From Holophagales bacterium (lineage in GTDB: Bacteria; Acidobacteriota; Thermoanaerobaculia; Multivoradales; Multivoraceae), in NCBI GenBank assembly GCA_009837085.1, contig VXUF01000158.1, forward strand, positions 666 to 64,665: 64,000 bases of DNA, written 5' to 3'. A program made the translations under genes and the position numbers. Under the pieces are notes generated by a model, which saw only the letters and a list, made by a program, of their open reading frames with translations, made no database searches and was not told where the DNA came from. Below, in pieces: positions 18,808 to 58,804 of this stretch (position 1 is the stretch's first letter; every line of letters starts with the position of its first letter).

Positions 18808-18829
18808 GTCAGCGAGGGTTCCAGCCGAC

Positions 18830-24114: not shown

Positions 24115-24151
24115 CTTCGTTCGAGGTTCGTTTGAGACTCGTTCCGGATGC

Positions 24152-25591
24152 TCAGCCGAGCAGGCTCTTCGCCCGCTGCGCCGCCCTGATCCCGCCGCCG
24201 ATCGCGCCGTCGATGAAGCCGCGCCAGCCTTCCCCGTGGTCGCCCGAGCCGAACAGGATGCGGCCCCGGTCCCGCTGGAACTCGTCGTAGTGGCGGCTCA
24301 CCCAGCCCGGCCGGTACACGGCCCAGGTGCCCCGCGAGTACGGGTCGCCGTTCCAGTCGTGGCTCATGCTGCCGATCAGCTCTGCGCGCGGGACGTGAGC
24401 CCGCAGCGCCCGCTGCACCGCGTCGCCGTCGTTCACGTCGAGGTCGGCGGGGTCCTTGCCGAACGCCACCAGCAGCGTGTAGTTCGCGGCCTGCTTGTAG
24501 GTCATCACGAAGTCGATCGGCTCGTCGATCGCGTAGGTGGCGACATTGCCGACATCGCCTTCGGCCTTGAGCAGGAGCTTGAAGCCGGCGCCGGCGTGGC
24601 GCTGCCGGCCCGCCTCGACCACGCCGGCGGCGAGCGGGGGGTCGAAGGCGACGTCCGCGATCGTGTTCATCGGCAGGCAGCAGATGACGGCCCGGCACTG
24701 GATCTCCTCGCCCGCGCCGGTGCACACCACGGCCCCGTCACCGCGGTCGCGGATGGACTCGACGGGCGTCTCGAGTCTCGCCTCGAGTCCCGCGTCGTCA
24801 ACCATCGCCTGGAGCAGGCCCCGCGTGCCGCGCTTCAGCTTGAAGCGCGCGACGGAGTCTTCTACCGTCGGCAGGAAACCGCCGCCGGCGAGGTGCCAGC
24901 GCATCAGCTCCAGGTACGACATCGTCTCCGGCTGGCCGTTCGCCATGATCGCGATGACGGCTCGCAGATAGTTCCGCTGGAGGGACGAGAGTTCGAGCCG
25001 CTCGATGTGGTCCGTCGCGCTGATACGGTCCGCGGCGAGCGCGGCGTCGCGGTTGTGGAGGATGTCCCACGCCCGCGGAACGATCCATCGCGCCTCCGCG
25101 TGGTAGAGCCGCCAGGCCTCGTAGGTTTCGGCGTACCGGGCCTCCGTCAGCCGGATGCGCTCGCCGTCCGCGATCAGGTAGCCGGTATCCGCCACCGCAC
25201 CGGGGGTCTGCTCGATCTCCAGGCCGTAGCGTTCCTTCTCGGCCCAGACGAAGGGCTGGGTGTGGTGGATCCAGGTGCCCCCGAGTTCGACCTGGTCGCC
25301 GTCGAAGTCAGCGGTCCAGGTGCGGCCGCCGAGCCGGTCGCGCGCCTCGAGCAGCAGCGTCGAGTAGCCGTTCTTCATCGAATCGCGCGCGGCGGCGACA
25401 CCGGCGAAGCCACCGCCAACCACCACGACATCGACATCGTGCCCGCGAACGGCGGACCGGCGGCGCGTGGAAGCGGCGGCGGCGGCGCTTGCCAGGACTG
25501 CCTTCCCCGCGAACAGCGATGACACCCCGACGACGAACTGCCGGCGACTGGCGGTTGCGCTTGCCAAGTTCGGCGCCACGGTTGGAGTCAT
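24152..25591 (-). CDS. Flavin-containing amine oxidase family protein with Tat-type signal
   Basis: ATG 25591 gives MTPTVAPNLASATASRRQFVVGVSSLFAG. Dinucleotide fold VDVVVVGGGFAGVAAA. Confidence 0.8.
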   Translation of the reverse strand: MTPTVAPNLASATASRRQFVVGVSSLFAGKAVLASAAAAASTRRRSAVRGHDVDVVVVGGGFAGVAAARDSMKNGYSTLLLEARDRLGGRTWTADFDGDQVELGGTWIHHTQPFVWAEKERYGLEIEQTPGAVADTGYLIADGERIRLTEARYAETYEAWRLYHAEARWIVPRAWDILHNRDAALAADRISATDHIERLELSSLQRNYLRAVIAIMANGQPETMSYLELMRWHLAGGGFLPTVEDSVARFKLKRGTRGLLQAMVDDAGLEARLETPVESIRDRGDGAVVCTGAGEEIQCRAVICCLPMNTIADVAFDPPLAAGVVEAGRQRHAGAGFKLLLKAEGDVGNVATYAIDEPIDFVMTYKQAANYTLLVAFGKDPADLDVNDGDAVQRALRAHVPRAELIGSMSHDWNGDPYSRGTWAVYRPGWVSRHYDEFQRDRGRILFGSGDHGEGWRGFIDGAIGGGIRAAQRAKSLLG

Positions 25592-25620
25592 GGTCGCGCG
25601 GAAGACTCTAGCGGAACCGA

Positions 25621-27579
25621 ATGTACACTCGACTCCAGGCAATGACACCAACCCGGAAGCCGCGACGGTTCGGAGACGACATCAGCCGTCGCGACTTTCT
25701 CTCGGGGATTCCCGTCGCGCTGACCGGCGCCGCCCTGGCCTGCCGGGACGTACCCGCGTTCCAGCGGGAAATCGAACGCGAGGGCGCGGCGGCCTATCCG
25801 CCGCTGCGCACGGGAATGCGCGGCTCCCACCCCGGCTCGTTCGAAGTCGCGCACGAACTGGTCCAGGAGGGCCGGGAGTGGACGGCCACCGAAACCGGCG
25901 AAGCGTATGACCTGGTGGTCGTGGGCGCCGGCATCTCGGGACTGGCGGCCGCGCACTACTTCTCGAAGCAGGCGGGCCCGGACGCCCGCGTGCTGCTGCT
26001 CGACAACCACGACGACTTCGGCGGCCACGCGAAGCGCAACGAGTTCCGGCTCGACGGGCGGACCTACCTGATGAGCGGCGGCACCCTGTACGTCGAGGCG
26101 CCCTCCCAGTACGGGGACATCGCGGGGGGCCTCCTCGAGGAGATCGGGATCGACCGCGGGCGCTACTACGAGTCCGTCGCCTCGGTAGCGGACACGTACG
26201 AGAACCTGGGGCTTGAGCAGGGCATGTTCTTCGACCGCGAGACATTCGGCACGGACATGCTGGTTGCCGGTGTCGGGAGTCGCCCCTTCGCGGAGTTTCT
26301 CGCCGACACGCCACTGTCGGAGACGGTCCGGGCCGATCTGATCCGGCTCCACAGCGAGGAGCAGCCGGACTACCTGCCGGACCTCTCGCCGGCCGGGAAG
26401 AAGGCGTACCTTGCCACCATCAGCTACAGGGACTTTCTCCTCGAACACGCGAAATGCGATCCGGGCGTGGTCCGGTTCTTCGACTACCGGCCCAAGAGCA
26501 TCTACTGCACCGGAATCGACGCGTATCCGGCGCGCTACGCCTGGGAGGAGGGCCTGCCCGGCTTCTCGGGCATGGAGATTCCGGAGACGCCCCCGGATCT
26601 GCTGGCGGACGAGCCGGGCGGCCAGCACGGCCGGGAGAACCAGGCCCGGGCGTACGAGGGAGATCCCGACGTCTACTTCCCGGACGGAAACGCCACAATC
26701 GCCCGGCTCCTCGTGCGGGGGCTTGTTCCGGGCAGCGTCCCGGGATCGACCATGGAGGACGTGGTCATGGCGCCCCTCGACTACGGGATGCTGGATCGGG
26801 CGGGAAACCGCACCCGGATCCGGCTGTCCTCGACCGTGATCCGGGTCGAGCCCGGGCAGGGTGGCCCGGCCCGGGTCACCTACGTCCGGGACGACCAGGG
26901 GCACACCGTCACGGCCGGACGGGTCATTCTCGCCTGCTGGCACAACATCGTTCCCCATCTGGTTCCCGAACTGCCGGAATCCCAGCGGGACGCGCTCTCC
27001 TGGCCGGTCAAGTCGCCGCTCCAGTACACGAGCGTGCTGCTGCGGAACTGGCGCGCCTTCACCGAGGCCGGCGTCTCCTACATCGAGGCCCCAGGTGGCT
27101 ACCACACCTCGGTGGGGCTCGCCGAACAGCTCTCGCTCGGGGACTACCGGACGTCGACCTCGCCAGACGAGCCGCTGGTGATCTCGATGTACCGCTATCC
27201 GTGCGAGCCGGGCCTGTCCCGGCGCGACCAGCATCGAGCCGGCCGGATGGACCTTCTCCGCACCACGTTCGAGACGGTGGAAGCCAACATCCGGGACCAG
27301 CTCAACCGGATGCTCGGTCCAAGCGGTTTCGACGACCAGCGCGACATCGCGGCGATCACGGTCAACCGCTGGCCGCACGGCTACACCTACACTTACAACC
27401 CGCTCTTCGATCCGCCGGAGTGGGCCTTCGAGGCGGGCGACGACAGGCCCGTGGTGACGGCGAGGCAACCCTTCGGCCGGGTCGCCATCGCGGGCGCCGA
27501 CGCCGCCGCGAGCCCCCACACGGACGCGGCGATCCAAGAGGCTCACCGGGCGGTGAAGGAGGTACTCGCGGCGGACTGA
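25621..27579 (+). CDS. Tat-exported NAD(P)/FAD-dependent oxidoreductase, spermidine-dehydrogenase (SpdH)-like
   Basis: ISRRDFLSG twin-arginine motif, YDLVVVGAGISGLAAAHYF, 652 aa. The SpdH similarity is from memory of that family only. Confidence 0.65.
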   Translation: MYTRLQAMTPTRKPRRFGDDISRRDFLSGIPVALTGAALACRDVPAFQREIEREGAAAYPPLRTGMRGSHPGSFEVAHELVQEGREWTATETGEAYDLVVVGAGISGLAAAHYFSKQAGPDARVLLLDNHDDFGGHAKRNEFRLDGRTYLMSGGTLYVEAPSQYGDIAGGLLEEIGIDRGRYYESVASVADTYENLGLEQGMFFDRETFGTDMLVAGVGSRPFAEFLADTPLSETVRADLIRLHSEEQPDYLPDLSPAGKKAYLATISYRDFLLEHAKCDPGVVRFFDYRPKSIYCTGIDAYPARYAWEEGLPGFSGMEIPETPPDLLADEPGGQHGRENQARAYEGDPDVYFPDGNATIARLLVRGLVPGSVPGSTMEDVVMAPLDYGMLDRAGNRTRIRLSSTVIRVEPGQGGPARVTYVRDDQGHTVTAGRVILACWHNIVPHLVPELPESQRDALSWPVKSPLQYTSVLLRNWRAFTEAGVSYIEAPGGYHTSVGLAEQLSLGDYRTSTSPDEPLVISMYRYPCEPGLSRRDQHRAGRMDLLRTTFETVEANIRDQLNRMLGPSGFDDQRDIAAITVNRWPHGYTYTYNPLFDPPEWAFEAGDDRPVVTARQPFGRVAIAGADAAASPHTDAAIQEAHRAVKEVLAAD

Positions 27580-27627
27580 CGGACGGCCCGGGATATGGTG
27601 CAGATGGAATCCGTTCACGGGGTTGCC

Positions 27628-29978: not shown

Positions 29979-29999
29979 TTCCCTGACAGGAGGAAACAG

Positions 30000-30401: not shown

Positions 30402-30432
30402 CCGAAGCGCCGCCGCACGTCGGCGCCGGGTC

Positions 30433-31881
30433 GTGACGGGCGCCGCCGAGCCCGAGGCGAAGCAGCGGCTGCTGCACTCGTCGGTCAGCGCCTACGGCTC
30501 GATGCTGCTGCGCCTGCTGCTCGCGTTCGCCGCACGCGCCATCCTGGCCCGGCTGATTCTCCCGGACGTTCACGGACTCTTCGACCTCGCGCTGCAATTC
30601 GTGGTGATGGCCTCCGCCATCCGCGACCTCGGCCTGACCCACCACCTCATGCGCGATCCGCGCGAGTCCTACGGCACAGTGCTCGCCTGGAGCCTGAGTG
30701 TAGGCGCCGCCATGTCCCTGGCCCTGGTCGCATTCGCCGGCGTCTTCTCCTACCTCAATCCGGACCTGCCGAATGTCCTGCGCGGTCTGGCCGTGTGGAT
30801 CGTCATCGATGCCGCGATCATGGTCTACCGGACCTTCTTCGAACGGCGGCTCCGAATCCGCGAAATCGCCGGCTTCGAAATCCTGCGCAGCCTCGTGTAC
30901 GGCCTGATCGCGGTCGGCCTGGCCCACCTCGGCGCCGGAGTCTGGTCTTTCGTGGGCGGCGAGTTGCTGGCATCGGCACTCTTCGCCGTTCTGCTGCTGT
31001 GGCGAGCGCGAGGCCGGGTCAAGCTAGACGTCGACTGGCAGCGACTCCGAGGCCTGCTCCGCGCCAGCCGCTACCTGTTCGTCGTCTGGGCCGCGGCCCA
31101 GGTCTTCAACCGCATCGACATCTACATCATCGAGATCTTCTCGACCACCACCTTCGTCGGCTACTACGGTCAGGCCTACTACTTCGCCTTCCTGGTCGCC
31201 CTGACCGTGACCCCAAGGCCGCTGTTGCCAGCCCTGGTCGAGTTCCGCGAGAAGGCTGCAGAGTTCGCGGAGACCCTGCGGCTCGGCACGCTGGTCTTCC
31301 TCGCCGGAATCGTCGTCTCGGCCTACTTCCTGTTCTTCAACGCCGAGAAGGCAGTCCAGGTGGTTCTCGGGCCCGGGTGGGACGACACGGTGCCGCTACT
31401 TCGCGTTCTCTGTCTGGTACCCCTGGTCGATGTCTTCACGACAACGGGCGGCGAAGCGCTGAAGGTGCAGAACCGGGACCGCCTGTGGGTGACCACGGTA
31501 GTGCTGAACATGCTGGCTCTCATCGGCTTCGGCTTCCTCTTCACCTACCTCTGGGGCCCCATTGGCATGGCCTGGGCGAACTTCCTGCGCATCGGCAGTT
31601 TGTTGATGTTCCTCAAGGTGCTCGGCATCTTCGCGGGCCGACGACGCCGGCTGGTCGCCAGTCTTGCCCAGGTCTACCTGCTGCCTCTGCCGTTCTTCAT
31701 TGCCGTCGCGGTCTTGCTGCCGACAGGCAGTTGGGCCCGGCTGATCGCCAGCATCGCGGCGGCGGCACTCGCCGGCGGCCTCCTGACGCTTCGCTTCCTC
31801 CCCGATTACCGGCGGTTCTTCCGCACCGCCACGACCGGCGCCGAGACAGCGGGCGACGCGGACATCGGGACGACCTCGTGA
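30433..31881 (+). CDS. Polysaccharide biosynthesis protein / oligosaccharide flippase (Wzx, MOP superfamily)
   Basis: 482 aa, hydrophobic helices throughout, Wzx-like N-terminal pattern ([26 protein letters not shown]), located in a glycan gene block. Confidence 0.75.
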
Positions 31882-33431
31882 CGGATCGCCGAACGCTCAG
31901 ACTCCTCGGCGCCTCGGCGGCAGCCCTGCCGCTGCTAACCCTCCTGTTCCTCCCGATCCGCACGATCGACGACGCCTTCATCACCTTCCGCTACGCCCGC
32001 CACCTTGCCGACGGCAACGGCCTGGTCTTCAACCTCGGCGAGCGCGTGGAAGGGGTGACCAGCCTGTCGTGGACCCTGCTGCTGGCGTTCGTCGAAACGC
32101 TGCGTCTGCCGGTCGAGCCCGCGGCGTTCGTTCTCGGCGTGTCGTTCGCCCTGTTGGCATTGCGCGAGGCCTACCTGCTGGGTCGCGGCCTCGGCGCCTC
32201 ACCGGCGGCCTGTCTGGCCGCGGTCGCGCTGGTGGCGGTCCATGGCCGCTTCTGGCTGGTTGCCGGCAACGGCCTGGAGGGCGGCCTGTTCGCCTTTCTG
32301 GTCGTCCTCGTCGCGCGTAAGACCATCGAGGAAGCGGACACGCGGCTGATCGGCGTCCTTCTGGGGCTGCTCTTCATGACCCGGCCGGAGAGCCTGGTCG
32401 TCCTGCCGATCGTCGCCGGCTATCAGTTGCTGGGAACGTCCGAATCCGCCGAGAGGACGGAAGCGCGTACCCGAGCCGTCACCCTTTCGGTTGCGGCTCT
32501 CGCGGTCGTCGGGGCCGTCACGATCTGGCGGCTCGGCTACTACGGCGCCCTCCTGCCCAACTCGGTGGCCGCCAAGTCCGCCGTCTCGGCCGGAACCGAG
32601 ACGCTGCTGGCGAATCTGGTGTCGGGCCTGTCCTATACCGTCCGCTTCGAGATCGCTCACGCGCCCCTGATCCTCGGCGCCGCAATCGCACTGGTCCGAA
32701 GGCCCGCGAACCGGGCCCTGTGGTTCTGCCTGCTCGTGGTGGTGTCCGAGTTGCCGGCCGTCCTCGTCAACGGCGGCGACTGGATGCCTCACTACCGGCT
32801 GTTGACCGTGTTCGCACCGGTGCTGGCGGCTCCGCTGGCCCTCTGCCTCTCAAGTGCGTTCGGGGACTGGGACATGCCGGGCCCCGCCAGACGGCGCTCA
32901 GCCTGGGTGCTCGCCGTGCTGTCCGTGAGCGCCGTCTTCATGCTCAGCCGCAGTCCCTGGCAGACCACACCCGGCCCGCGCTTCACCTTCCATCCGATCA
33001 CGAGCTGCTACCAGTTCATGGCGACCCGCCTGAAGCCCCACCTTGCGCCCGGCGACGTCGCCGCCGCCGAAGCGATCGGGCTCTTCGGCTGGATCCTCGA
33101 CGAAACGACGATCCACGATCCTCTCGGCCTGACCTCCACTCATCACGCTCGCCACGGCGAGTACCACCTGAACTGGGGTAAAACCGACTACAACCATCTC
33201 CACCAGGTCCGCCCCGCGGTCCTCGTGCTCCACGAGGGCTCGGTGGTGACCCCCGGGAAGATCGACCGCGGCACCGACGGCCGCTTCGCCCGCGACTACT
33301 CCGCCTGGTTCGTCAGCCAGCAGCCGCCCTGCGCGCCGTACCGGCTCATCGTGTACATCGACAACGAGCGACTGGAGCGCCTTCGCCCGGCACTCGCCGG
33401 CCTCGCCATCGAGCCCCTGCCGACCAGCTAG
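31878..33431 (+). CDS. Large polytopic membrane protein, possibly a GT-C-type glycosyltransferase/polymerase
   Basis: GTG 31878 overlaps the flippase stop (GTGA). Early loop motif [26 protein letters not shown] is followed by many hydrophobic segments. 517 aa. Family not firmly recognised. Confidence 0.45.
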
Positions 33432-33491
33432 GAGTCAACGCTGCGTCTTCGCAACGCTGACTCGCATGGGACTCGCCGCCCACTGGGCGGC
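33432..33491. terminator. Two hairpins between convergent genes (possible bidirectional terminators)
   Basis: 33432..33463 forms a 14-position stem with 12 pairs and loop tctt. 33475..33491 is gccgccc-act-gggcggc. Neither has a clear T-tract. Confidence 0.4.
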
Positions 33492-33500
33492 ACTACCAAC

Positions 33501-34442
33501 TCAGCCGGCAGGCAACCGCCGGCGCAACCAGATCGAGCCGAAGTGGGTGTCGTAGTCGTCCACTTCGACCGGGCGGTAGCCGGGAATCGTTCGCTCCAGG
33601 TAGGGCTCGTCGAAGTGACGAATCATCGGCGCGGAGAGCACCACCTCGAACTCCCGGTTGAAGCTCAGGAAGGCCTGCAGGACCATCGCCTCCGTGCGGT
33701 AGAGCGGCCACTTGGCGCGAAAGATGTACTGCTCGGCCGGGTAGGGAGTGTTGTAGGGGAAGTGGATGTCATGGATGTGGACCACGACGCCGGGCCGCAG
33801 CCGCGGCAGCACCTCGAGGAAGAGAAACGCCACGTCTCCGCCGAGCTTCAGCACGTGGGTCGAGTCGATGAACAGCACGTCGCCGGCATCCAGGGCCTCG
33901 AAGAGCCCGAGGTCCGTGGCCTCGACCTTTGACACGACGGCGTTCACCGCCGGACCCTCCAGCTCGCGCAGCCGGCCGGTCGGGAACGGATCGATACAGG
34001 TCATGTCGCAGGCACGGCCGTCACGCCCGTTCGCCGCCCCGGCCAGCCACGCGTAGTAGGTCGACAGCCCGGACCCGATCTCGACATAGCGCGCCGGCCG
34101 CAGGTCCCGCACCATGAGGTACGTCGTCAGCGCATCGATGACCGGGAATCCCGGGCCATATCCCAATGCCCTGATCTCACTGTGCGGCGGCAGTTCCTCG
34201 AACTCTCCGCCATGGGTCTCGACCAGGGCTGCGAGCAGAGACTTCATCGCGTCCAGGTCGTAGTCGACTCCCACCAACTCGCTCGGCCGGTCCCACGACT
34301 CCCGGGACTCCGCCACCTCTGACAGCACCGGCAACGGCGAGTAGAAGTCGGCCGTCCACGCCACGTTCCACCCCAACCGCCGCAGGGCGGCGAACAGGGC
34401 CGCGTGCAACCGGCGGTAGATCGTCCTCAGCACGTTGACCAT
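33501..34442 (-). CDS. Class I SAM-dependent methyltransferase-like protein
   Basis: ATG 34442. YVEIGSGLSTYYAWLA glycine-rich SAM loop and DVLFIDSTHV acidic strand. 313 aa. Next to glycan genes. Confidence 0.55.
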   Translation of the reverse strand: MVNVLRTIYRRLHAALFAALRRLGWNVAWTADFYSPLPVLSEVAESRESWDRPSELVGVDYDLDAMKSLLAALVETHGGEFEELPPHSEIRALGYGPGFPVIDALTTYLMVRDLRPARYVEIGSGLSTYYAWLAGAANGRDGRACDMTCIDPFPTGRLRELEGPAVNAVVSKVEATDLGLFEALDAGDVLFIDSTHVLKLGGDVAFLFLEVLPRLRPGVVVHIHDIHFPYNTPYPAEQYIFRAKWPLYRTEAMVLQAFLSFNREFEVVLSAPMIRHFDEPYLERTIPGYRPVEVDDYDTHFGSIWLRRRLPAG

Positions 34443-34701
34443 CGGATGCCGACGATAGCCCGTTCGGAACTCAAGGAGCGAGGCATCGGCTCGCGCATTT
34501 CCGCCGCGCGATCCGGAGTCGGCCACCTGTGCCGATCCGCCGGGACAAGCCACGAAAAAATCGCTCGAAGAGACGACAGATTCGCCAAAATCTCACACAG
34601 GCTCCTATAGGCTCCCCGTTCGGTCGGACAGCTTCAACGGACAGAGTTCAATTGAGTCGCCCCGCTCATCGTAATGCCGCAACTCCTCGCCGAGGTGCCC
34701 G

Positions 34702-36687
34702 GTGATCGGCCCCGCAGGAGTTCTCAAGGAACGTTCGAAGACAGCACCGGCCCGGAACCTCAATCAGACGATCGAGGCCGCGGCGCGCAACCTCCTGAGC
34801 AGTCGCAAGGAGGATGGTCACTGGCGCTTTGAGCTCGAGGGCGACACGATCCTCGAATCGGAGTACGTTCTGCTGCTCTACTTCCTCGGCCGCGCAGGCG
34901 ATCCGAGAGTCACCGCCTGCTGCCGGCGCCTGCGGAGCCAGCAGATGCCGACAGGCGGCTGGGCGACCTATCCGGGCGGACGGGTCGATCCAAGCGTGTC
35001 CGTCAAGGCCTATCTGTGCCTGAAGCTCGCCGGCGACGACCCGCGTTCGCCGCACATGGCCGCGGCACGCCGCGCGATCCTCGGCGCCGGAGGGCTGCGT
35101 GCTTGCAACTCGTACACGAAGTTGTACCTGGCAATCTTCGGCCTGTGGCGCTGGCGACAGGCGCCGGCGGTGCCCCCGGAGATGATCCTCCTGCCGCGGT
35201 GGTTCTGCTTCAACATCTACGACATGTCTTCGTGGACGCGGGCGATGGTCGTTCCGCTGTCGGTGATCTGGGCCCACCGGCCGAGCGTGCCGCTCGGCGT
35301 CACGCTCGATGAACTCGAAACGGAGTTCGTCCCGACTCGTGCTCGTCGACCGCTGATCGAGCTTCTCTGGGCACAGGCGTTCAGCGCGCTCAGCGCACTG
35401 TTCAAGCTGGTCGACTGGATCGGTCCTCTTCCCTGGTGGCGGCGCCGTGCCCTGGTGAAGGCCGAAAGATGGCTGACAGAGCGCATCGAGTGCGCGGACG
35501 GCCTGGGCGCGATCTTCGGGGCAATGGTGAACGCCGTCATCGCTTTGCGGTGCCTGGGATACGACCTGAACCACCCCCTGGTTCAGGCTCAACTGCGCGA
35601 ACTCGAACGGTTCGAGATCGAGGAGGCCGGGGAGACCCGCCTCCAGCCTTGTCTGTCGCCGGTCTGGGATACGACCCTGACGGTGAACGCGTTGCTCGAT
35701 GCCGGCGTGGATGACGGGAAAGCCCCGATTCAGGAAGCTCTGGAGTGGCTGCTGGACCGGGAGATCTCGGTTGCGGGCGATTGGCGCCAAAGGAGTCTCC
35801 AGGAGGCGCCCGGCGGCTGGTGCTTCGAGTACCGGAACGACCACTACCCCGACTGCGACGACACGGCGGAGGCACTGCTGGCGCTGGCCCGGGTCCGGGG
35901 GCGTTTCGCGCTGGAAGGGCGACGGCAAGAGGCACTGGCCCGGGGACTGGCCTGGCTTCTGGGCATGCAGAACCCGGACGGCGGCTGGGCCGCCTTCGAC
36001 CGGGGATGTGACAAGGAAGTCCTCACCTTCATTCCCTTCGCCGATCACAACGCGATGATCGATCCGAGCACGCCGGACATCACCTCTCGAAGCATCCGTG
36101 CCCTGCTTGCCGCGGGACTCGGTCCGCGGGAGGCGCCGGTCAGGCGGGCCGCCGGGTACCTGCTGCGACAGCAGGAGGAGGACGGAAGCTGGCCCGGACG
36201 CTGGGGGGCCAATCACATCTACGGGACCGGGCTTTCGCTGCGGGCTCTAGGTGAGCTCGCCTCCCCGGCGGCACGCGACCGCTCCGACGCCCTGGCGCGG
36301 GCGTTGAAGCGTGGCCGGAGTTGGCTCGTCCGGGTCCAGAACGGAGACGGCGGGTGGGGCGAGTCGCTCCGTTCCTACGAGCATCCGACCGCCAGGGGGC
36401 GCGGGGACAGCACCGCATCCCAGACGGCCTGGGCGATGCTGGGGCTGAGCGCGGCCGTCCGAGCGCGGCCGGAACCACGCGAATCCGGTGTGGCTCGCGC
36501 GGCGCTCGACCGTGCCGCCGCCTTCCTTCAGGAGCGTCAGCGGGAGGACGGTTCCTGGTACGACCACTGGTGGACCGGGGTCGGTTTTCCGGGAGTCTTC
36601 TATCTCCGATACCACGGCTACGCCCAGTACTTTCCGCTCGCGGCGCTTGCTGCGTATCGCCGGCTTCGATCAGGGAGCCGGCGATGA
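34702..36687 (+). CDS. shc: Squalene-hopene cyclase
   Basis: Catalytic DxDD motif HYPDCDDTAEA. Repeated QW motifs (QNPDGGWAAF, QEEDGSWPGRWG, QNGDGGWGES, QREDGSWYDHWW). 661 aa. Confidence 0.92.
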   Translation: MIGPAGVLKERSKTAPARNLNQTIEAAARNLLSSRKEDGHWRFELEGDTILESEYVLLLYFLGRAGDPRVTACCRRLRSQQMPTGGWATYPGGRVDPSVSVKAYLCLKLAGDDPRSPHMAAARRAILGAGGLRACNSYTKLYLAIFGLWRWRQAPAVPPEMILLPRWFCFNIYDMSSWTRAMVVPLSVIWAHRPSVPLGVTLDELETEFVPTRARRPLIELLWAQAFSALSALFKLVDWIGPLPWWRRRALVKAERWLTERIECADGLGAIFGAMVNAVIALRCLGYDLNHPLVQAQLRELERFEIEEAGETRLQPCLSPVWDTTLTVNALLDAGVDDGKAPIQEALEWLLDREISVAGDWRQRSLQEAPGGWCFEYRNDHYPDCDDTAEALLALARVRGRFALEGRRQEALARGLAWLLGMQNPDGGWAAFDRGCDKEVLTFIPFADHNAMIDPSTPDITSRSIRALLAAGLGPREAPVRRAAGYLLRQQEEDGSWPGRWGANHIYGTGLSLRALGELASPAARDRSDALARALKRGRSWLVRVQNGDGGWGESLRSYEHPTARGRGDSTASQTAWAMLGLSAAVRARPEPRESGVARAALDRAAAFLQERQREDGSWYDHWWTGVGFPGVFYLRYHGYAQYFPLAALAAYRRLRSGSRR

Positions 36688-38693
36688 CCGTCAGGTTCGC
36701 CGAGGAGATTCTCCTGCTCATCCTCGACGAAGAGCACGGTGATCTGCCGGAGTCCTACTCGGAGCATCTTCTGGACATCGTCGTCGCCGGCGCCGTGTTG
36801 ATGGATCTGGCGCTGGAGGGACGGATCGACACGGACCTCGAGAAACTCGTCCTGGTGGACTCGACGCCTCTTGAGGACGAGCTTCTCGATCCGACCCTGG
36901 CGGATGTAGCGACCGGCCCGGGCGATCGCAACGCGGACTACTGGATCGCGCGCACCGCGGAGCGGGGCAAGGAGATCCGTGAACGTGCGCTTGCCCGCCT
37001 GGTCGAGAACGGAATCCTGGAAACCGATGCCGGCGGCATGTTCTTTTCGTCCGCCGTCTCCCGTTCCAGGCGCTATCCGACCCGTGACGGGCGCCAGATG
37101 GAGGAAGTGCGCCTGCGAATCATGCGGGTGCTGTTCAGCGACGAGATACCCGATCCGCGCGATGTCGTGCTCATCTGCCTGAGCGACGCCAGCGGCGTAC
37201 TGCGTCGCCTGCTCACGCCGCAGGAGAGGACCCGGCTGCGGGAACGGATCGAGCAGATCCGGAAGCTCGACCTGATCGGCCGGTTCCTGCTCCCGGCGAT
37301 TCGCCAGAACCAGCTCGCCGCCCCGGCGCCGACGGCAGCCCGGCAGCCGAGCGAGATTCCCGAAGTGAAGGGCCTCCCGTTCCTCGGCAGCGCCCTCAGC
37401 ATGACCGGAGATCTGAGCGTCTTCTTCGCCCGGCAGTATAGGGAACTGGGCCCCGTCTTTCGCGTGCGCGCCCTGAACCGGCGCCTCCTCGTTCTCGCCG
37501 GTCCGGAAGCCGTTCAGTTTCTCCAACGCCAGGGCAAGGCCCACTTGCGAACCGGCAACGAGTGGTTGCGCTTCAGTTGGGAGATGGGGGCCTCCAAGAC
37601 GATCATCGCCCAGGAGGGCCCTCCACATGTCCGCATGCGCAAGACGATGGCCCCGGGCCTTTCGCCCCAGTGCCTCCACGAGCGCATGCCCGACTTCATG
37701 CGCATCACCCGAACGGAGATCGCCGGCTGGCTCCACGGCGGTCCCGTTGCGGCCCGCTCCGCGCTTCAGCGCATGATCACTCGCCAAGCCGGCGCACTGC
37801 TGGCCAACCTCGACATGGTCGACGGCTCCGACGACCTGGACCGCCTTCTAGGGACGATCCTGGACGTGGAGGTGGCGCGACGACGTCCAAGGTGGTGGCT
37901 GAAGCTCCCGCGGGTGTCTCGCGCTCGAAAGTCCTATCGGGCGCTCTTCGAGGAGATCATGGCAGTGCACGAGCGACGCAAACCGTCTGGCGGCCCATCG
38001 AACGTCGTGGACGATCTGCTCGATCTTCATCGAAGAGACCCTCGGCTGCTCCCCGAAGAGGACCTGCCGGGCGTCGTCGGATCCATCCTCATCGCGGCGC
38101 TCCACACGGCAGCGTACACGGTGGTGTTCGCGCTCTACGAGGCGCTGAAACGCCCGCGGTTCCTGAACGCGATGAGGGCCGAAGCGGACGCCCTGTTCGA
38201 CAGCGGAGCCGCAGCCGCGCCTCCACTGTCACGACTTGACGTCACGAACCGCTTCGCGATGGAGACCATGCGGGTGTACTCGATCACGCCCGCGGTGCTG
38301 CGTCGCGTAACGAACTCGTTCGTGTTTGCCGGCCACACGATTCCGGCCGGCGCAGACATCGTGATCGCCTACGGAGCAGCGCACCATCTGCCGGAGCACT
38401 TCCCCGATCCGCAGCGTTTCGACATCGACCGGTACACGCCGGAGCGGGCGGAGCATCGGGCAGCCGGTGTGTACGTTCCGTTCAGCGCGGGAGCGCACAG
38501 TTGCCTGGGAAAGGGCCTCGCCCAGATTCAGATCGCACTGACCCTTGCGACGATCTTCCATGAGGCCGACCTGGAGATGAGGCCCCCGGGCTACAGGCTG
38601 AAGGTCTCCTACGGTCTGTCGCCCAGGCCGGCCGATTCCTTCAGGTTCGTCGCGCGGCGCAGAAGAGAAAGAGACGCCTCCCTCACCGCCTGA
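36684..38693 (+). CDS. Fusion protein: N-terminal GPP34/GOLPH3-family domain + C-terminal cytochrome P450
   Basis: ATG 36684 overlaps the shc stop (ATGA). The N-terminus EEILLLILDEEHGDL...VVAGAVLMDLALEGRIDTD is GPP34-like. P450 motifs are ExxR (ETMR) and heme loop FSAGAHSCLGKGLA. Confidence 0.8.
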   Translation: MTVRFAEEILLLILDEEHGDLPESYSEHLLDIVVAGAVLMDLALEGRIDTDLEKLVLVDSTPLEDELLDPTLADVATGPGDRNADYWIARTAERGKEIRERALARLVENGILETDAGGMFFSSAVSRSRRYPTRDGRQMEEVRLRIMRVLFSDEIPDPRDVVLICLSDASGVLRRLLTPQERTRLRERIEQIRKLDLIGRFLLPAIRQNQLAAPAPTAARQPSEIPEVKGLPFLGSALSMTGDLSVFFARQYRELGPVFRVRALNRRLLVLAGPEAVQFLQRQGKAHLRTGNEWLRFSWEMGASKTIIAQEGPPHVRMRKTMAPGLSPQCLHERMPDFMRITRTEIAGWLHGGPVAARSALQRMITRQAGALLANLDMVDGSDDLDRLLGTILDVEVARRRPRWWLKLPRVSRARKSYRALFEEIMAVHERRKPSGGPSNVVDDLLDLHRRDPRLLPEEDLPGVVGSILIAALHTAAYTVVFALYEALKRPRFLNAMRAEADALFDSGAAAAPPLSRLDVTNRFAMETMRVYSITPAVLRRVTNSFVFAGHTIPAGADIVIAYGAAHHLPEHFPDPQRFDIDRYTPERAEHRAAGVYVPFSAGAHSCLGKGLAQIQIALTLATIFHEADLEMRPPGYRLKVSYGLSPRPADSFRFVARRRRERDASLTA

Positions 38694-38706
38694 GGAGGAG
38701 ACTCCA

Positions 38707-39849
38707 GTGCCCGGCAAAGACAAGGTCCTCCCGCACTCGAGCACGATGGCCCCTCCGGGCACATGGCTGCGCCTCCTCTGGGAGAACGGCGGCGCCCCGC
38801 CGGCCTACTGGGGCAAGGTGGCGCGGATCCTCATTCCGACGACGCTGGCTGCTCCTCTACGGATCTTCGAACGACTGCGCTGGGGCGGGGCCGTCGCCCG
38901 CGTGGAGATCGACAAACCGCCCGTCTTCGTGCTCGGCGTTGCCCGCAGCGGCACGACCCATCTGCTCAATCTGATGTCGCAGGATCCCCAGTACGCCTGG
39001 ATCTCGACCTTCCACGCCGCCGTGCCGACCTTCTTCCTCACCGGCCGTGGCCGGTTGAAGCGCCTCATGGCCGGACTCGCGCCGGCGACCCGGCCGATGG
39101 ACAACATGAAGGTGTCCATGGACATGCCGGTGGAGGAGGATCTGGCAGTCGCCAATGCGAGTCCTTTCTCTTCCCTCCATGCGCTCTCGTTCCCCCAGCG
39201 GGGAGAGTGGTACTTCAACAGGTACTGCTTCATGCGAGGCCTTTCGGCCAGGGATATGAAGCAGTGGGAGCGCGTCTACATGGAGGTGCTGCGCAAGGCG
39301 ACGCTGGATGCCGGCGGCCGGCGGCTGGTGCTCAAGAGTCCGGCCAACACCGGCCGGATACCTCATCTGTTGCGGCTCTTCCCGGACGCGCGGTTCATCC
39401 ACATCGTTCGCAATCCGTACGTGGTCTACGAATCCCTGGTGCACATGTTCCGTTCGGTCATACCGATGCACCAGCTTCAGTCGATCACCGAGGATGCTCT
39501 GCACGATCTCGCTCTCTTCCTCCTGCGGGAGACTCTGCGGCAGTACCTTGAGGACCGATCGTCCATCCCGAAGGGACAGCTTGTGGAGCTGCGTTTCGAA
39601 GATCTGGAGCGGAATCCGCTGTCGGAGCTCGAGGCCGTCTACGCAACGCTGGACCTGCCGGGCTGGGAGGCGGCGCGGGTCGGGATCGAGAGCTACCTGG
39701 GTGGAATTGCCGGCTATCAAAAGAACCGGCACGCAATCGATCCGTGCACGGTCGAACGCGTTCAGCGAGAGTGCCGCTTCGCACTGGACACATGGGAGTA
39801 CCTGCCGCCCGACGGTCCGTCGGCCGCGGTGTCCTGGGCGTCACGGTGA
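38707..39849 (+). CDS. PAPS-dependent sulfotransferase family protein
   Basis: GTG 38707 lies 6 nt after GAGGAGGAG. 5'-PSB loop VLGVARSGTTHLLNL and 3'-PB-like FIHIVRNPYVVYES. 380 aa. Confidence 0.8.
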   Translation: MPGKDKVLPHSSTMAPPGTWLRLLWENGGAPPAYWGKVARILIPTTLAAPLRIFERLRWGGAVARVEIDKPPVFVLGVARSGTTHLLNLMSQDPQYAWISTFHAAVPTFFLTGRGRLKRLMAGLAPATRPMDNMKVSMDMPVEEDLAVANASPFSSLHALSFPQRGEWYFNRYCFMRGLSARDMKQWERVYMEVLRKATLDAGGRRLVLKSPANTGRIPHLLRLFPDARFIHIVRNPYVVYESLVHMFRSVIPMHQLQSITEDALHDLALFLLRETLRQYLEDRSSIPKGQLVELRFEDLERNPLSELEAVYATLDLPGWEAARVGIESYLGGIAGYQKNRHAIDPCTVERVQRECRFALDTWEYLPPDGPSAAVSWASR

Positions 39850-39904: not shown

Positions 39905-41800
39905 CTACCGGCGCTGTAGTCGCAAGCCGACGACAATCGTGCGGCCCGGCGTGACGAAGCCGGGGACCTCGAAGTAGTCCTCATCCAGGAGGTTCTCGAT
40001 CCGTACGAACGGTCTGAGCCACGACAGGCTGTAGCTCAGGTGGAGGTCGACCTTGGTGTAGTCGTCCATGACCGCCCCGTCCGAATCGGTCCGGTCGGAG
40101 ACAAAGGCGACCATGGCGGCCGCCGTGAAGCGGTCCGTCGGCTGTAACTGCGCGACTGCCGTCGTGCGGTTCTTCGGCCGCCTGGCCAGCGGATTGCCCG
40201 TGGCCTTGTCTTCCGTCCGGTTCCAGGTGTGCGAAAGCTCGATGCTCGTCGAAACGTCCGGCCGGTAGCGCAGGGTGAACTCCGCGCCGCTCGAGCTGGC
40301 CTGAGCCACGTTGCCGAAGGTGAAGCTGGTCAGATCGAACTCGATCAGTTGATCGAAGTCGATGTCGAACCAGGTCAGATCGAGGGTCACGCCCGAATCG
40401 CCCAGCCGCTGCTGCAGGCCGACGTCGAAGCCTTCCGTGGTCTCCGGCAGCAAGTTCGGGTCGCCGGAGAAGGGAAAGTAGAGCTCGTTGAAGTTGGGCG
40501 CCCGGAACGCCGTGCCGTAGCTGCCGTGGACGCGGCCGCGGCCATCGCTCCAGCCGCCTGAGACGGTGACCCGATGACTTGTCTCGGACCCGAACGCCGA
40601 GTGCTCGTCGCCTCGCAGCGCGGCGGTCACGTGAACATCGTCCGTAATCGACCACTGGTCCTGCACGAACCACGAGTCCAGGTCGGCCTCCTCGTCAAAC
40701 GTGCCGACACTCGCCCCCCGCCGGTTCTCCGTCCCGAGACCCAGATTCAGCACGTTGCTCGTGCCCAGCGTGATGTCGGACTGCAGGTCGATCTGCCGGA
40801 TCTCGGAACGGATCTCGTAGTTGTTCCAGATCGTGTCCGGGTCGGTCCCGAGCAGGGCCGCATCGGTCCGGCCGATGCGCACGGTCTGTCGCCAGAACGA
40901 ACCCAGGCCCTTCTCCACCGTCAGAGAGATCGTGTCCTCGTCCTGGGCGGCCATCGCGTTCAGATCCTCGAGGCCGAATCCGTCCACCGCGGTGTCGCCG
41001 CGGTAGGAACGAGCACGCAGGTCGATCCGGCCGTCACCCGCGAAAGCGGCGCCGAGGCGGGTACTCAAGGTCTGGTTCTCGTACGGATCGTCTTCGACCG
41101 CACCGCCCTCGATCGCGCGGTGGGACACGCCGTCGGTGCTCAGGTCGACCGCTGAAACGCTGACGTCCCAACGGTCGGTCGCGCCCAGGAGGCCCAGCTC
41201 GAACCGACGATGATCGTGGGTCCCGGTCTCACCGGTCCCGCTCAGCCGCCATCCCTTCATGCCGCGGCCAGTCGTGATGCTGACGACCCCCGTCATCGCC
41301 TCCGAACCGTATGTCGCCTGCGGGCCGCGAAGCACCTCAATGCGCTCGATGTTGGCCGCCAGCAGGTGCGCGAAGTCGACCGTGCCGCCGGTGACCGAGT
41401 TGACCCGCACGCCGTCGACGAGGACCAGCGCCTGCGCTCCGGAGCCGCCGCGCACCCGGACCGTGGCGATCTTGCCGGGACCTCCGGCGTGAGTCACTTC
41501 CGTGCCGGGAACCGTGCGGAGCAGGTCGAGCACGGCCACCGGATTGCGCCGTTCGATCTCTTCGGCCTCGATCACCGTGACCGCGCTGCCGACCTCCGAC
41601 GCCGGTACCTCGTAGCGGTTGGCGCTGACGACGATCTCCTCCGCGACGGTGTCTGGCTCGGCGCCAGCTTCCTCGTCCTGGCTGCCGGCTACCGGCGCCA
41701 CCAGCAGGACGGTCGCCGCGGCGTGCAGCCACGGCAGGTGCGGGCGGCGTCGGGCGGCGCCCCGGGGACGTGGTACGTCGAGACTTCTCTTGTCGTTCAT
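39905..41800 (-). CDS. btuB: TonB-dependent receptor, vitamin B12 transporter BtuB-like
   Basis: Signal peptide. Plug region EEIVVSANRYEV...LLRTVPGTEV...VRVRGGSGAQALVLVDGVRVNS. 631 aa. A cobalamin riboswitch sits in its 5' leader. Confidence 0.85.
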   Translation of the reverse strand: MNDKRSLDVPRPRGAARRRPHLPWLHAAATVLLVAPVAGSQDEEAGAEPDTVAEEIVVSANRYEVPASEVGSAVTVIEAEEIERRNPVAVLDLLRTVPGTEVTHAGGPGKIATVRVRGGSGAQALVLVDGVRVNSVTGGTVDFAHLLAANIERIEVLRGPQATYGSEAMTGVVSITTGRGMKGWRLSGTGETGTHDHRRFELGLLGATDRWDVSVSAVDLSTDGVSHRAIEGGAVEDDPYENQTLSTRLGAAFAGDGRIDLRARSYRGDTAVDGFGLEDLNAMAAQDEDTISLTVEKGLGSFWRQTVRIGRTDAALLGTDPDTIWNNYEIRSEIRQIDLQSDITLGTSNVLNLGLGTENRRGASVGTFDEEADLDSWFVQDQWSITDDVHVTAALRGDEHSAFGSETSHRVTVSGGWSDGRGRVHGSYGTAFRAPNFNELYFPFSGDPNLLPETTEGFDVGLQQRLGDSGVTLDLTWFDIDFDQLIEFDLTSFTFGNVAQASSSGAEFTLRYRPDVSTSIELSHTWNRTEDKATGNPLARRPKNRTTAVAQLQPTDRFTAAAMVAFVSDRTDSDGAVMDDYTKVDLHLSYSLSWLRPFVRIENLLDEDYFEVPGFVTPGRTIVVGLRLQRR

Positions 41801-53873: not shown

Positions 53874-55076
53874 ATGCGCGAGCCTTTCGAGCAACTGGCC
53901 TTCGACATTCCCGCCTGCTACGTCGACGGCTACAAGGCAGCCCGGGCGCTGGATCCGGATCTGGCGGAGCGCTACATCCGCTACACGACCGTGGGCGATC
54001 CGCTGGCCGATCGGGCGGTCGAACAACTGGCGGCGATCGTGGAGCCCCAGCACGTTCACCGCACGATCGCCCAGACAGTCGACCACTACCACGATCCGCC
54101 GAAGGACACGCCCGAGGCTCTCCGGGAGCTCATCGAGTCCTCAGCCGTCGTCCCCGACTGGTTCGACCCCGAGATCGCCCTGAAGGCCACGAGAGCCTTC
54201 CTCCGCAACTCGGACATGGTCCTTGGAGGCCTCGTGGGCGGCGCCATCGTCGAGGGCTTTTCCACCCTGATCAGCAAATCGTTCCGCATCCGCAGCCGGA
54301 TCATCCTGAACGGCGTCCGCCGGCTCAAGCAGAACACCCTGCAGTTGACCGAGCAGTTCATGCCGGGCGGTCTGGAGCCTGGCGGCGACGCCTGGAAGCT
54401 GAGCCTGCGCATCCGCCTGGTGCATGCCCAGGCGAGGATGCTGCTCAAGCAGTCGGACGAATGGGACACGCCGGAGCACGGAATGCCGCTCAGCGCGGCC
54501 CACATGCTGCTGGGCGCGGCCGCCTTCTCAGGCCGACTGATGGACCACATCGCGCGCCTGGGCGGTGACTTCAGCCGGGAGGAGAAGGATGCCTACGTCC
54601 ACGTGTGGAGATACACGGGACTCGTCATGGGGATACCCGAAACCATCATGTTCCACGACCACGCCTCGGCGTGCCGCGTCTTCGAGATCGCGGCGACCTG
54701 CGAGCCGCCCCCGGACGACGACGCGATCATCATGGCGAACAGCATCGTCAACAGCGCACCCATCCTGCTCGGGTTCAGGGAGACGAAGGAACGCCGCGAG
54801 ATGGCGGCGTTCATCTACCAGGTTTCGCGGGAGCTGATCGGCAACGACCTGGCGAACTCCTTCAGATTCCCCAAGTCGAGGTTCGTCAAGCAGGTACCCC
54901 TGCTGTTCCTGAGGAACAGAGCGGAGAAGGCGGCCCTGAAACTGCTCCCCCGCCTGTTCGCGAACCGGTCGATGAAGCGGTTCGACGCGTTGCTGGATGC
55001 GTCGGATCTCGGCGAGATCGAGCACTCGTACGCGCTGCCGACGACTCTCCACGACGAGGATTCGCGGGACTGGTAG
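53874..55076 (+). CDS. MpaB/DUF2236-family oxygenase-like protein
   Basis: LSLRIRLVHAQARMLLKQSDEWDTPEHGMPLSAAHML resembles the conserved (R/L)xHAxVR...W...G.P core of DUF2236. 400 aa. The call is from memory of the family. Confidence 0.55.
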   Translation: MREPFEQLAFDIPACYVDGYKAARALDPDLAERYIRYTTVGDPLADRAVEQLAAIVEPQHVHRTIAQTVDHYHDPPKDTPEALRELIESSAVVPDWFDPEIALKATRAFLRNSDMVLGGLVGGAIVEGFSTLISKSFRIRSRIILNGVRRLKQNTLQLTEQFMPGGLEPGGDAWKLSLRIRLVHAQARMLLKQSDEWDTPEHGMPLSAAHMLLGAAAFSGRLMDHIARLGGDFSREEKDAYVHVWRYTGLVMGIPETIMFHDHASACRVFEIAATCEPPPDDDAIIMANSIVNSAPILLGFRETKERREMAAFIYQVSRELIGNDLANSFRFPKSRFVKQVPLLFLRNRAEKAALKLLPRLFANRSMKRFDALLDASDLGEIEHSYALPTTLHDEDSRDW

Positions 55077-55082
55077 CGCGAC

Positions 55083-55997: not shown

Positions 55998-56101
55998 GCG
56001 CAGGCGCAAGAGTCTACCGGGGCTGAGACAAGGTGCCCGGCCGTTGCTGCGTGGTATCGTGCCGCCTGTTCCTGCCCAGCGGAGCCACGCCCGAGCGCCT
56101 C

Positions 56102-58791: not shown

Positions 58792-58804
58792 CGCAGAGCA
58801 GTCT

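Follow-up and report, generated by a model that had tools for sequence, protein, structure and literature searches.

The 64,000-nucleotide stretch of DNA analyzed here, hereafter the window (positions 666-64,665 of contig VXUF01000158.1, Holophagales bacterium assembly GCA_009837085.1), carries three co-oriented genes, which code for a squalene-hopene cyclase (SHC; gene shc), a protein in which a GPP34 domain is fused to a cytochrome P450, and a sulfotransferase of the type that uses 3'-phosphoadenosine-5'-phosphosulfate (PAPS). The fusion has the architecture, an N-terminal GPP34 domain followed by a C-terminal P450, of the GPP34_L family, a set of 656 proteins that is exclusive to the symbionts of sponges and corals and for which no function has been established (Ferreira et al., 2025, Microbiome 13:4; PMC11706023). 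The elements of the trio are as follows, in window coordinates.

34554..34701 (no strand): divergent intergenic region of lower G+C, presumed promoter, between the Methyltransf_24 gene and shc
34702..36687 (+): shc, squalene-hopene cyclase of 661 aa, by Pfam N- and C-terminal domains and TIGR01507
36684..36687 (+): ATGA start/stop overlap of the shc stop and the fusion start, from the junction sequence
36684..38693 (+): GPP34::cytochrome P450 fusion of 669 aa, by Pfam and the published GPP34_L family
38694..38700 (+): Shine-Dalgarno-like GGAGGAG, 6 nt 5' of the sulfotransferase start codon
38707..39849 (+): PAPS-type sulfotransferase of 380 aa, Sulfotransfer_3 family, by Pfam

The cyclase gene opens with GTG at 34702 and closes with TGA at 36685-36687, and the ATG of the fusion gene, at 36684, lies within the overlap; the fusion gene ends in TGA at 38691-38693, and a spacer of 13 nt (38694-38706) leads to the GTG start codon of the sulfotransferase at 38707. 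These three open reading frames (ORFs), the overlap and the gap had been reported in a first-pass annotation made from the letters of the window, and the ORFs and junction sequences confirm them; all the motifs quoted there (DCDDTA and the QW repeats, ETMR, FSAGAHSCLG, VARSGTTHL and IVRNPYVVYES) are present in the translations, and Pfam and NCBIfam profile searches agree with its domain assignments for all three genes. The lower-GC divergent region that it placed before shc is likewise found, G+C being 0.60-0.61 across 34400-34850 versus 0.66-0.70 in the flanking DNA. A promoter and terminator consensus scan detected no sigma-70 consensus upstream of shc, and such a scan says little for this phylum.

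A scan at one genome per species returned at least 542 relatives of the fusion. Our analyses use the best 80 of these loci, against which the window proteins were searched by tblastn, and whose neighboring ORFs were clustered, together with ten context look-ups. Nearly all of the 80 come from metagenome-assembled genomes (MAGs) that bear isolate names of published sponge or coral sets, and many phyla are represented among them. Those fusions that reach 53% identity or more to that of the window group into one clade, mainly Holophagales and other Acidobacteriota, for which 15 loci have usable flanks; this clade, which unites the shc-linked fusions with that of L005, has a bootstrap of 100/100. 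In this clade shc adjoins the fusion at 14 of 15 loci (12 intact, 2 deletion remnants), whereas none of the 74 loci beyond it has shc there (Fisher p = 4e-15, in a test that used 70 outside loci), and the linkage between shc and the fusion is far beyond chance. A sulfotransferase gene adjoins the fusion at 14 of the 15 clade loci and at 14 of 74 others. Around the fusion (FUS), the genes for the cyclase, the sulfotransferase (ST), and the efflux components, that is, a resistance-nodulation-division (RND) pump, an outer-membrane efflux protein (OEP) and a membrane fusion protein or adaptor (MFP), are arranged as follows.

SHC-FUS-ST: window, L036
remnant of SHC, then FUS-ST: L001, L002
SHC-FUS-RND, no ST, flanked by transposase genes: L095
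FUS-SHC-ST: L004, L085
FUS-ST-SHC, often followed by OEP-MFP-RND or by RND: L082, L083, L086, L096, L097, L098
FUS/ST-SHC-FUS-ST-RND: L081
ST-FUS, no SHC: L005

The neighborhood described by the first-pass annotation is therefore conserved in relatives, with the intact trio in three gene orders (SHC-FUS-ST, FUS-SHC-ST and FUS-ST-SHC) and in at least six flanking contexts, and the co-occurrence that it left to be tested statistically is borne out by the adjacency counts. The flanks of L086 hold Hda, DUF2066, PilD and BamD genes and on this gene content look proteobacterial; those of L098 are Holophagales by taxonomy. A 4-bp overlap (ATGA, GTGA or TTGA) couples shc to its upstream neighbor in all eight arrangements checked (window, L082, L083, L085, L095, L096, L097 and L098), and RND, OEP or MFP genes lie beside or near the trio in L081, L082, L083, L085, L095, L096, L097 and L098. 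Rearrangement without dispersal, movement between contexts and the retention of coupling throughout together point to selection on the linkage. A scan of metagenome contigs with a clade-specific alignment added only two distant relatives. At locus L081 the fusion gene is present twice and shc is split; an RND pump, a phage-type integrase and a type I-E CRISPR-Cas system are encoded there as well. An apparent 1058-aa "triple fusion" of GPP34, P450 and sulfotransferase (P0035, L081:10001-13177) was set aside as a frameshift artefact and is not used as evidence: it lies on a long-read contig of 1x coverage, the C-terminus of its P450 is out of frame, and shc is split on the same contig.

We regard it as reasonably probable that the trio is one operon that makes an oxidized, sulfated hopanoid-type triterpenoid, which in many relatives would also be exported; within the sponge-symbiont GPP34_L family, a single clade has this cassette. 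Several observations weigh against this reading. The closest species-level relatives, L001 and L002, hold shc only as deletion remnants, and the deletions differ (341+256 bp in L001, L001:8489-10001; 292+1035 bp in L002, L002:9215-9994), while the fusion, the sulfotransferase and the downstream receptor are intact and 95-99% identical to those of the window; the fusion and the sulfotransferase can thus persist without an adjacent cyclase. Truncated, near-identical SHC proteins are found in other assemblies as well (P0149, 480 aa; P0169, 387 aa). In L005 the sulfotransferase and the fusion stand without shc, in L095 shc and the fusion stand without a sulfotransferase, and most members of the wider fusion family lack a cyclase gene in their vicinity. 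The operon itself includes no redox partner, no PAPS-synthesis gene and no convincing squalene synthase. Moreover, part of the conservation is synteny of a single chromosomal slot (L082, L083, L085, L096, L004 and L005), with PCMT, CCP_MauG, HAD, MreB and amidase genes on one side and OEP-MFP-RND on the other. Inferring the substrate from similarity to CYP51 is weak, given an identity of 22-24% and the lack of the B'-helix signature (see below), and no sulfated hopanoid was found in the literature searched.

The same remnants lend themselves to a second explanation, which we hold to be unlikely although worth serious weighing: the fusion and the sulfotransferase, usually with an efflux pump, would work as a pair in the manner of phase-I and phase-II metabolism on lipids that do not come from the adjacent cyclase, such as sterols of the host sponge, terpenoids or other hydrophobic compounds, and shc would be a neighbor by descent from the shared slot. 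The confinement of the family to symbionts of sponges and corals (PMC11706023) is consistent with this, as are the absence of shc from 74 of the 80 sampled loci, the intact pairs beside shc remnants in L001 and L002, the shc-free L005, and the slot of L087, which has shc without the pair. RND or major facilitator superfamily (MFS) transporters are, furthermore, frequent neighbors across the family, and the partners vary by clade (sulfotransferase, Acyl_transf_3, EcKL kinase or AMP-ligase) as generic conjugation chemistry would. However, the trio occurs in three orders and also outside the slot (window, L081, L086, L095 and L098), whatever the arrangement, 4-bp overlaps tie shc either to the fusion gene or to that of the sulfotransferase, and shc adjacency is limited to one fusion clade with full bootstrap support. 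Genomes that lack an adjacent shc may, in addition, retain a second one elsewhere, as does the genome of L083 and L088. A pair without adjacent shc would either draw its substrate from such a second cyclase, which is possible in the L083/L088 genome, or act on a different substrate.

The cyclase of the window has the features of an ordinary SHC. It matches SQHop_cyclase_N (PF13249, E=8e-107) and SQHop_cyclase_C (PF13243, E=4e-112), scores 610 bits on the TIGR01507 hopene_cyclase model (equivalog cutoff 431), carries the DCDDTA motif and QW repeats, and aligns over its full length to the Alicyclobacillus acidocaldarius enzyme, of which it retains W169, W312, F365, D447, W489, Y495, F601, F605, Y609 and Y612 in addition to DxDDTA (A. 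acidocaldarius numbering). Three deviations, Y420F, H451R and Q262F, were considered as a sign of an unusual cyclase and rejected, since canonical, hpnH-linked acidobacterial SHCs have all three. Relaxed selection on shc was likewise rejected: the ratio of nonsynonymous to synonymous substitution rates (dN/dS) is 0.19-0.23 between the window gene and its orthologs in L095 and L036, as expected of a gene under purifying selection. The predicted product is hopene or diplopterol. The trio cyclases do deviate from canonical acidobacterial SHCs in the GAIFPAM loop, which lies towards the terminal end of the active site, and a product other than hopene or diplopterol is therefore possible. With respect to its history the locus is a mosaic, in that the window SHC is nearest to that of L095 (94.6% at the amino acid level, synonymous divergence dS 0.12), and the fusion is nearest to that of L001 (99%, dS 0.06) and only 86% identical to that of L095. 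Because SHC and fusion have different nearest relatives, the comparison of the window with L095, L001 and L036 suggests recombination near the shc/fusion junction.

The loop deviation would also fit another order of the reactions. The same end product could be reached if the P450 acted on squalene first, by terminal epoxidation or hydroxylation, and SHC then cyclized the oxidized chain to a hydroxy-hopanoid, for example 3-hydroxyhopene, ahead of sulfation. SHCs accept 2,3-oxidosqualene, and the FUS-SHC-ST order of L004 and L085 is colinear with such a route. We nevertheless think it improbable that squalene is the oxidized substrate: the P450 is nearest to CYP51, which binds sterols that are already cyclized, the remaining gene orders are not colinear with this route, and no flavin-type or other epoxidase signature was found.

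The fusion protein has the following domains and motifs.

36699..37298 (+): GPP34 (GOLPH3-like) domain, residues 6-205, PF05719 E=1e-38
37368..38585 (+): P450 domain, residues 229-634, CYP51-like, PF00067 E=2e-48
38103..38108 (+): I-helix His474-Thr475, a CYP51-type "HT" where an acid-Thr pair is usual
38481..38510 (+): heme-binding loop FSAGAHSCLG, whose heme ligand, Cys607, is invariant

An AlphaFold2 model of the fusion (mean predicted local distance difference test score 85.7) shows two domains joined by a low-confidence linker, residues 210-214; the ExxR motif of the P450 reads ETMR. The best sequence match of the P450 domain in the Protein Data Bank (PDB) is the CYP51 of Methylococcus capsulatus (E=1e-34), followed by other CYP51s, and CYP51 is also the top Foldseek match of the model (template modeling score 0.84, 24% identity), although CYP184, CYP97, CYP120 and BM3 follow so closely that only the sequence search discriminates. 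The segment DRYTPERAE is shared with the M. capsulatus enzyme. In the window the I-helix reads AALHTAA, and H474 and T475 are invariant across the shc-linked clade; outside it, among the GPP34_L proteins shown, "HT" occurs only in the sulfotransferase-linked Paracoccaceae fusion of L043, and most others have DT or ET. Identity to CYP51 is, however, only 22-24%, whereas the P450 nomenclature sets the family level at about 40%, so that neither family-level identity nor clear orthology is reached, and the B'-helix signature YxxxxPxFGxxVxFD was found neither in the window P450 (which has EWLRFSWEMGASKTIIAQ at this position) nor in any GPP34_L protein compared. For both reasons the domain is best described as CYP51-like, and not as a CYP51. 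Matches to the NCBIfam albaflavenone and pentalenene oxygenase models were left unused (118 bits versus a cutoff of 700).

The GPP34 domain, which precedes the proline-rich N-terminus of the P450, would serve as a tether to membranes or anionic lipids. Eukaryotic CYP51s bear a membrane anchor at the corresponding place, and the M. capsulatus CYP51 aligns to the P450 domain from its residue 4. The GPP34_L family profile matches GOLPH3 at E=3e-11. Of the residues that we take to form the phosphatidylinositol-4-phosphate (PI4P) pocket of human GOLPH3 (W81, R90, R171 and R174), the first two are replaced in the fusion by S26 and A35, and the last two correspond to K96 and R99; the alanine at position 35 is nearly invariant in the family, and position 96 is variable. 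The authors who described GPP34_L proposed a secreted effector that binds host PI4P and left the role of the P450 open (PMC11706023). According to this proposal the fusion would block phagosome maturation in the host; its operon partners would then be unrelated to it. In favor of this, the protein does have a GPP34 domain, its family is confined to symbionts (PMC11706023) and the basic pocket residues K96 and R99 are kept, but the fusion has no signal peptide, its N-terminus lying already within the GPP34 fold, two of the four pocket residues are replaced (W81 by Ser, R90 by the nearly invariant Ala), and a P450 requires heme, oxygen and a redox chain. Moreover, the gene is coupled to that of a membrane cyclase and is followed by that of a PAPS-dependent cytoplasmic enzyme, and metabolic enzymes are its neighbors across the family. 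We thus judge a role as secreted effector to be very unlikely for the window protein.

The third gene matches Sulfotransfer_3 (PF13469, E=3e-36), and both PAPS-binding motifs are in place: the 3'-phosphate-binding motif (RxxxxxxxS) as IVRNPYVVYES, and the 5'-phosphosulfate-binding loop at the start of the Pfam match.

38935..38964 (+): 5'-phosphosulfate-binding loop GVARSGTTHL, residues 77-86

Among solved structures the nearest to it are 2z6v (E=6e-11), which was deposited under the name "putative uncharacterized protein" and is presumably the mycobacterial Stf9, and the sulfotransferase domains of CurM and OLS. Fold and PAPS-binding motifs are shared with these Sulfotransfer_3 enzymes, Stf1 included, but similarity is low, E=6e-11 being the best value. 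To our knowledge the acceptors of Stf1 and Stf9 are unclear, and we know of no characterized triterpenoid sulfotransferase in this family; it is the genomic association that suggests a triterpenoid hydroxyl as the acceptor here. Sulfatase, family 2 glycosyltransferase (GT2) and Wzx flippase genes lie upstream in the window, at 27.6-31.9 kb, and the first-pass annotation had considered that the sulfotransferase might serve such polysaccharide genes; its adjacency to the P450 would then be due to chance. Genes of this kind do occur 3-7 kb upstream in the window, L001, L002 and L036, and there is a weak match to NoeE (27 bits versus a cutoff of 500). Yet the sulfotransferase is found beside the fusion at loci that have no polysaccharide genes (L082-L086 and L096-L098) and at 14 loci of other phyla, its identity tiers across relatives run parallel to those of the fusion, and between the trio and the polysaccharide genes lies the Methyltransf_24 gene, which has the opposite orientation. 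Since the sulfotransferase follows the fusion without them, and since its nearest structures are of the Stf and CurM/OLS types and not glycan enzymes, a function in polysaccharide sulfation seems extremely improbable.

The sequence of reactions that the first-pass annotation proposed, to cyclize, hydroxylate and then sulfate, remains the best-supported reading of the trio, inferred as it is from gene content and sequence. In a first step, SHC, whose class is clear from its sequence, would cyclize squalene in the inner membrane to a skeleton predicted to be of the hopene or diplopterol type. The fusion, with a P450 that probably derives from the sterol-binding CYP51 lineage and a GPP34 domain placed where eukaryotic CYP51s have their membrane anchor, would then introduce a hydroxyl into this polycycle; the probable site is a methyl or ring carbon. 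In a third step, the cytoplasmic, PAPS-dependent sulfotransferase may esterify the new hydroxyl to give an anionic amphiphile analogous to a sterol sulfate. Finally, in many relatives, the tripartite RND pump adjacent to the trio could act as exporter of the product, in the direction of the outer membrane or the host. What the first-pass annotation had missed is the published GPP34_L family, the likeness to CYP51, the loss of shc in L001 and L002, the RND partners and the extra cyclase paralog described next.

Compared with the canonical hopanoid clusters (shc, hpnH, hpnG, hpnA and HpnN), the trio has the same entry enzyme, and an RND transporter is often adjacent in both, but a P450 and a sulfotransferase stand in place of the HpnH radical-SAM enzyme and the HpnG nucleosidase, and the predicted product is a ring- or methyl-oxidized sulfate ester instead of a C35 bacteriohopanepolyol. 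HpnN is not known to require adaptor or outer-membrane partners, whereas the pump near the trio is a tripartite AcrB-type system with both. The first-pass annotation had noted that hopanoid side-chain genes are missing next to shc; this holds for the hpnH (Radical_SAM/DUF3463), hpnG (PNP_UDP_1) and hpnA (3Beta_HSD/Epimerase) types, for which the 42 window ORFs scanned gave no Pfam match, while hpnI/J/K and hpnP were not searched by name. In relatives, hpn-type tailoring genes adjoin paralogous or related SHCs in L087, L088 and L089: L087 (8001-17642), in the slot shared with L083, L085 and L096, has shc followed by hpnH and not by the fusion and the sulfotransferase, and L088 (8001-13250), a canonical shc-hpnH-hpnA-hpnG cluster, shares its 4.97-Mb contig with the trio of L083, whose cyclase is thus an extra paralog in that genome. 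The pair of fusion and sulfotransferase and hpnH look like alternative tailoring sets. In a neighbor-joining tree the trio cyclases cluster with cyclases such as that of L087, and those of canonical shc-hpnH-hpnA-hpnG clusters form a separate clade; the window SHC is 52-71% identical to cyclases in shc-hpnH(-hpnA-hpnG) clusters.

The CYP51-ferredoxin of M. capsulatus (PDB 6mcw, 7jj1 and 7snm) is similar to the window protein in being a fusion, in the HT pair, in DRYTPERAE and, as predicted for the window protein, in belonging to a triterpenoid pathway; it differs in that its partner domain is a C-terminal ferredoxin and not an N-terminal GPP34 domain, and the neighbor of the window fusion is a squalene-hopene and not an oxidosqualene cyclase. 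The same set of enzymes as in the trio, an SHC-type cyclase, a P450 or flavin monooxygenase and a sulfotransferase, has been predicted in symbionts for merotriterpenoids of the adociasulfate type (Smith, 2017, Mar Drugs 15:285; PMC5618424). That pathway, however, also needs a polyprenyl synthase and an aromatic prenyltransferase, neither of which lies beside the trio, and sulfates a hydroquinone, and the window cyclase looks like an ordinary squalene-hopene cyclase. Consistent with the statement of the first-pass annotation that it knew of no described bacterial pathway of this composition, the literature searched holds no prior description of the trio, of the CYP51 affinity or of the partner pattern. 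The fusion itself is already published, and a cyclase, a P450 and a transferase follow standard terpenoid logic; the interest of the trio lies in its setting and in what it explains.

The fusion is part of a much larger population. A protein search retrieved hundreds of full-length GPP34 plus P450 homologs, and, in agreement with the published survey, the family has multiple copies per genome and many phyla; 85.5% of sponge Acidobacteriota MAGs carry GPP34_L (PMC11706023). The window fusion is 98-99% identical to proteins of Holophagales and Acidobacteria MAGs with the isolate names SB06xx and COS, of a kind used in published sets of sponge MAGs. The latter isolate name presumably stands for Coscinoderma. 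The SB0661 MAG set is tied to Ircinia ramosa (PMC11706023). Among the genes that directly adjoin the fusion in L006-L074, the partners track fusion phylogeny. Beyond the shc clade, sulfotransferases adjoin the fusion at 14 loci, and they accompany fusions in Latescibacterota, Binatia and Caldilineaceae; membrane O-acyltransferases of the Acyl_transf_3 family adjoin it at 13 loci, and Gemmatimonadota and Dehalococcoidia have them; ecdysteroid-kinase-like (EcKL) kinases together with MFS transporters are found at 5 loci and in several phyla, and AMP-binding ligases at 7 loci of Vicinamibacterales. L023 has three sulfotransferases in tandem. The loci L062, L070, L072 and L076-L080 of gammaproteobacterial sponge MAGs, whose fusions have "AGHYT" in the I-helix, carry within about 6 kb of the fusion KshA_C/Rieske (SdmA-like) oxygenases, methyltransferases with a Sterol_MT_C domain, and AcrB-type RND pumps with adaptor and outer-membrane proteins; sterol C-24 methyltransferases are among the partners of fusions in Gammaproteobacteria. 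In an Arenicellales MAG (OZ220493.1; L029:5986-16975), two tandem fusions flank an Acyl_transf_3 gene, and downstream lie the gene of a 1128-aa squalene-epoxidase::oxidosqualene-cyclase fusion protein and that of a sterol C-24 methyltransferase; by its gene content this sponge-symbiont locus is a compact sterol gene cluster. Sterol clusters of sponge symbionts are known (Brown et al., 2023; PMC10070321), in a text that does not mention P450. The location of related fusions in a sterol cluster supports polycyclic triterpenoids as substrates of the family.

Neither sulfotransferases nor sterols, hopanoids or CYP51 are mentioned in the description of GPP34_L (PMC11706023), and the present analysis departs from it in the affinity of the P450 to CYP51, in the sulfotransferase, acyltransferase and kinase partners, in the links to sterol clusters and in the shc trio; the half-conserved PI4P pocket and the metabolic context of the window protein likewise contrast with the effector proposal. 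As far as gene content can tell, the partner pattern supports a logic of "oxidize, then conjugate, then export". A more far-reaching idea, which we put forward with considerable doubt, is that the whole GPP34-P450 family, present in most sponge-symbiont genomes and in more than 16 phyla, is a shared toolkit for the oxidation of polycyclic triterpenoids, which would be hopanoids in Holophagales but sterols in Gammaproteobacteria. The enzyme would be kept at the membrane by its GPP34 domain, and a clade-specific partner (sulfotransferase, EcKL kinase, O-acyltransferase or AMP-ligase) would attach a head group, either charged or acyl. RND or MFS pumps would then pass the product on to the host, and triterpenoid sulfates or phosphates of symbionts would be a general currency of the interaction between sponge and microbe. 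If this were true, some of the sulfated terpenoids and sterols that have long been isolated from sponges could stem from bacteria with this toolkit.

For GPP34_L, so far the subject of a speculative effector hypothesis only, the trio provides a first metabolic clue and a concrete, testable biochemical role. It also predicts a class of lipids absent from the literature searched, hydroxylated and sulfated hopanoids, the analogs of eukaryotic sterol sulfates, in bacteria that live inside animals. Sponges are rich in sulfated terpenoids and sterols of unexplained origin, and a mobile cyclase-P450-sulfotransferase cassette in their symbionts is a direct lead to that origin. Hopanoids and steranes are, moreover, key molecular fossils, and ring or methyl oxidation and sulfation in sponge symbionts would matter for the record that is preserved and for the identity of its makers.

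Outside the trio, the window contains the following features that touch on it.

33501..34553 (-): Methyltransf_24 gene, diverging upstream of shc, from the ORF and Pfam scan
39905..41800 (-): TonB-dependent receptor, directly downstream of the trio and convergent with it, BtuB-like, below the curated cutoff
55083..56009 (-): squalene/phytoene-synthase-family gene of divergent sequence, PF00494 E=4e-27
56033..57595 (+): outer-membrane efflux protein, from the Pfam and NCBIfam scan
ORF listed from 57163 (+), within 56033..58791: RND periplasmic adaptor, true start probably after 57595

The first-pass annotation had bounded the operon by a convergent btuB and placed a squalene synthase about 15 kb away. 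A convergent TonB-dependent receptor is indeed there, but it is only BtuB-like (289 bits on the BtuB model versus a cutoff of 600); similarly, the gene at 55083..56009 is of the right family but divergent, with 87 bits on TIGR01559 versus a cutoff of 287. It may supply the precursor of the trio, and the efflux genes at 56033..58791 may be the counterparts of those directly after the trio in L083, L095, L097 and L098. Within the stretch 53874-61542, an MpaB/Lcp-like oxygenase gene (53874..55076) lies back to back with the squalene-synthase-like gene, and the efflux protein and RND adaptor are followed by a GH16-like protein and a HlyD-type adaptor; an MpaB-like gene is also found two genes upstream of the trio in L081. 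RecBCD genes lie downstream of the trio in the window.

Upstream, the stretch 21628-27579 encodes a dimethylglycine/sarcosine-dehydrogenase-like protein (DAO + GCV_T, 828 aa), a flavoprotein of the amine-oxidase/phytoene-desaturase family (24152..25651, -) that matches HpnE/CrtI models N-terminally only, and a 652-aa flavoprotein without assigned role. Between the flippase and the Methyltransf_24 gene (31881-33500) are an ORF at 30795..33431 (+) and an antisense ORF without Pfam match. Two groups of sugar and polysaccharide genes, both of them unrelated to the trio, have the same synteny in L001, L002 and L036: the sulfatase, GT2 and Wzx-type flippase genes (27595-31881), and those at 16578-21575, which include a sugar C-methyltransferase (Methyltransf_13/14), a dTDP-sugar epimerase-like gene and a nucleotidyltransferase-HAD fusion.

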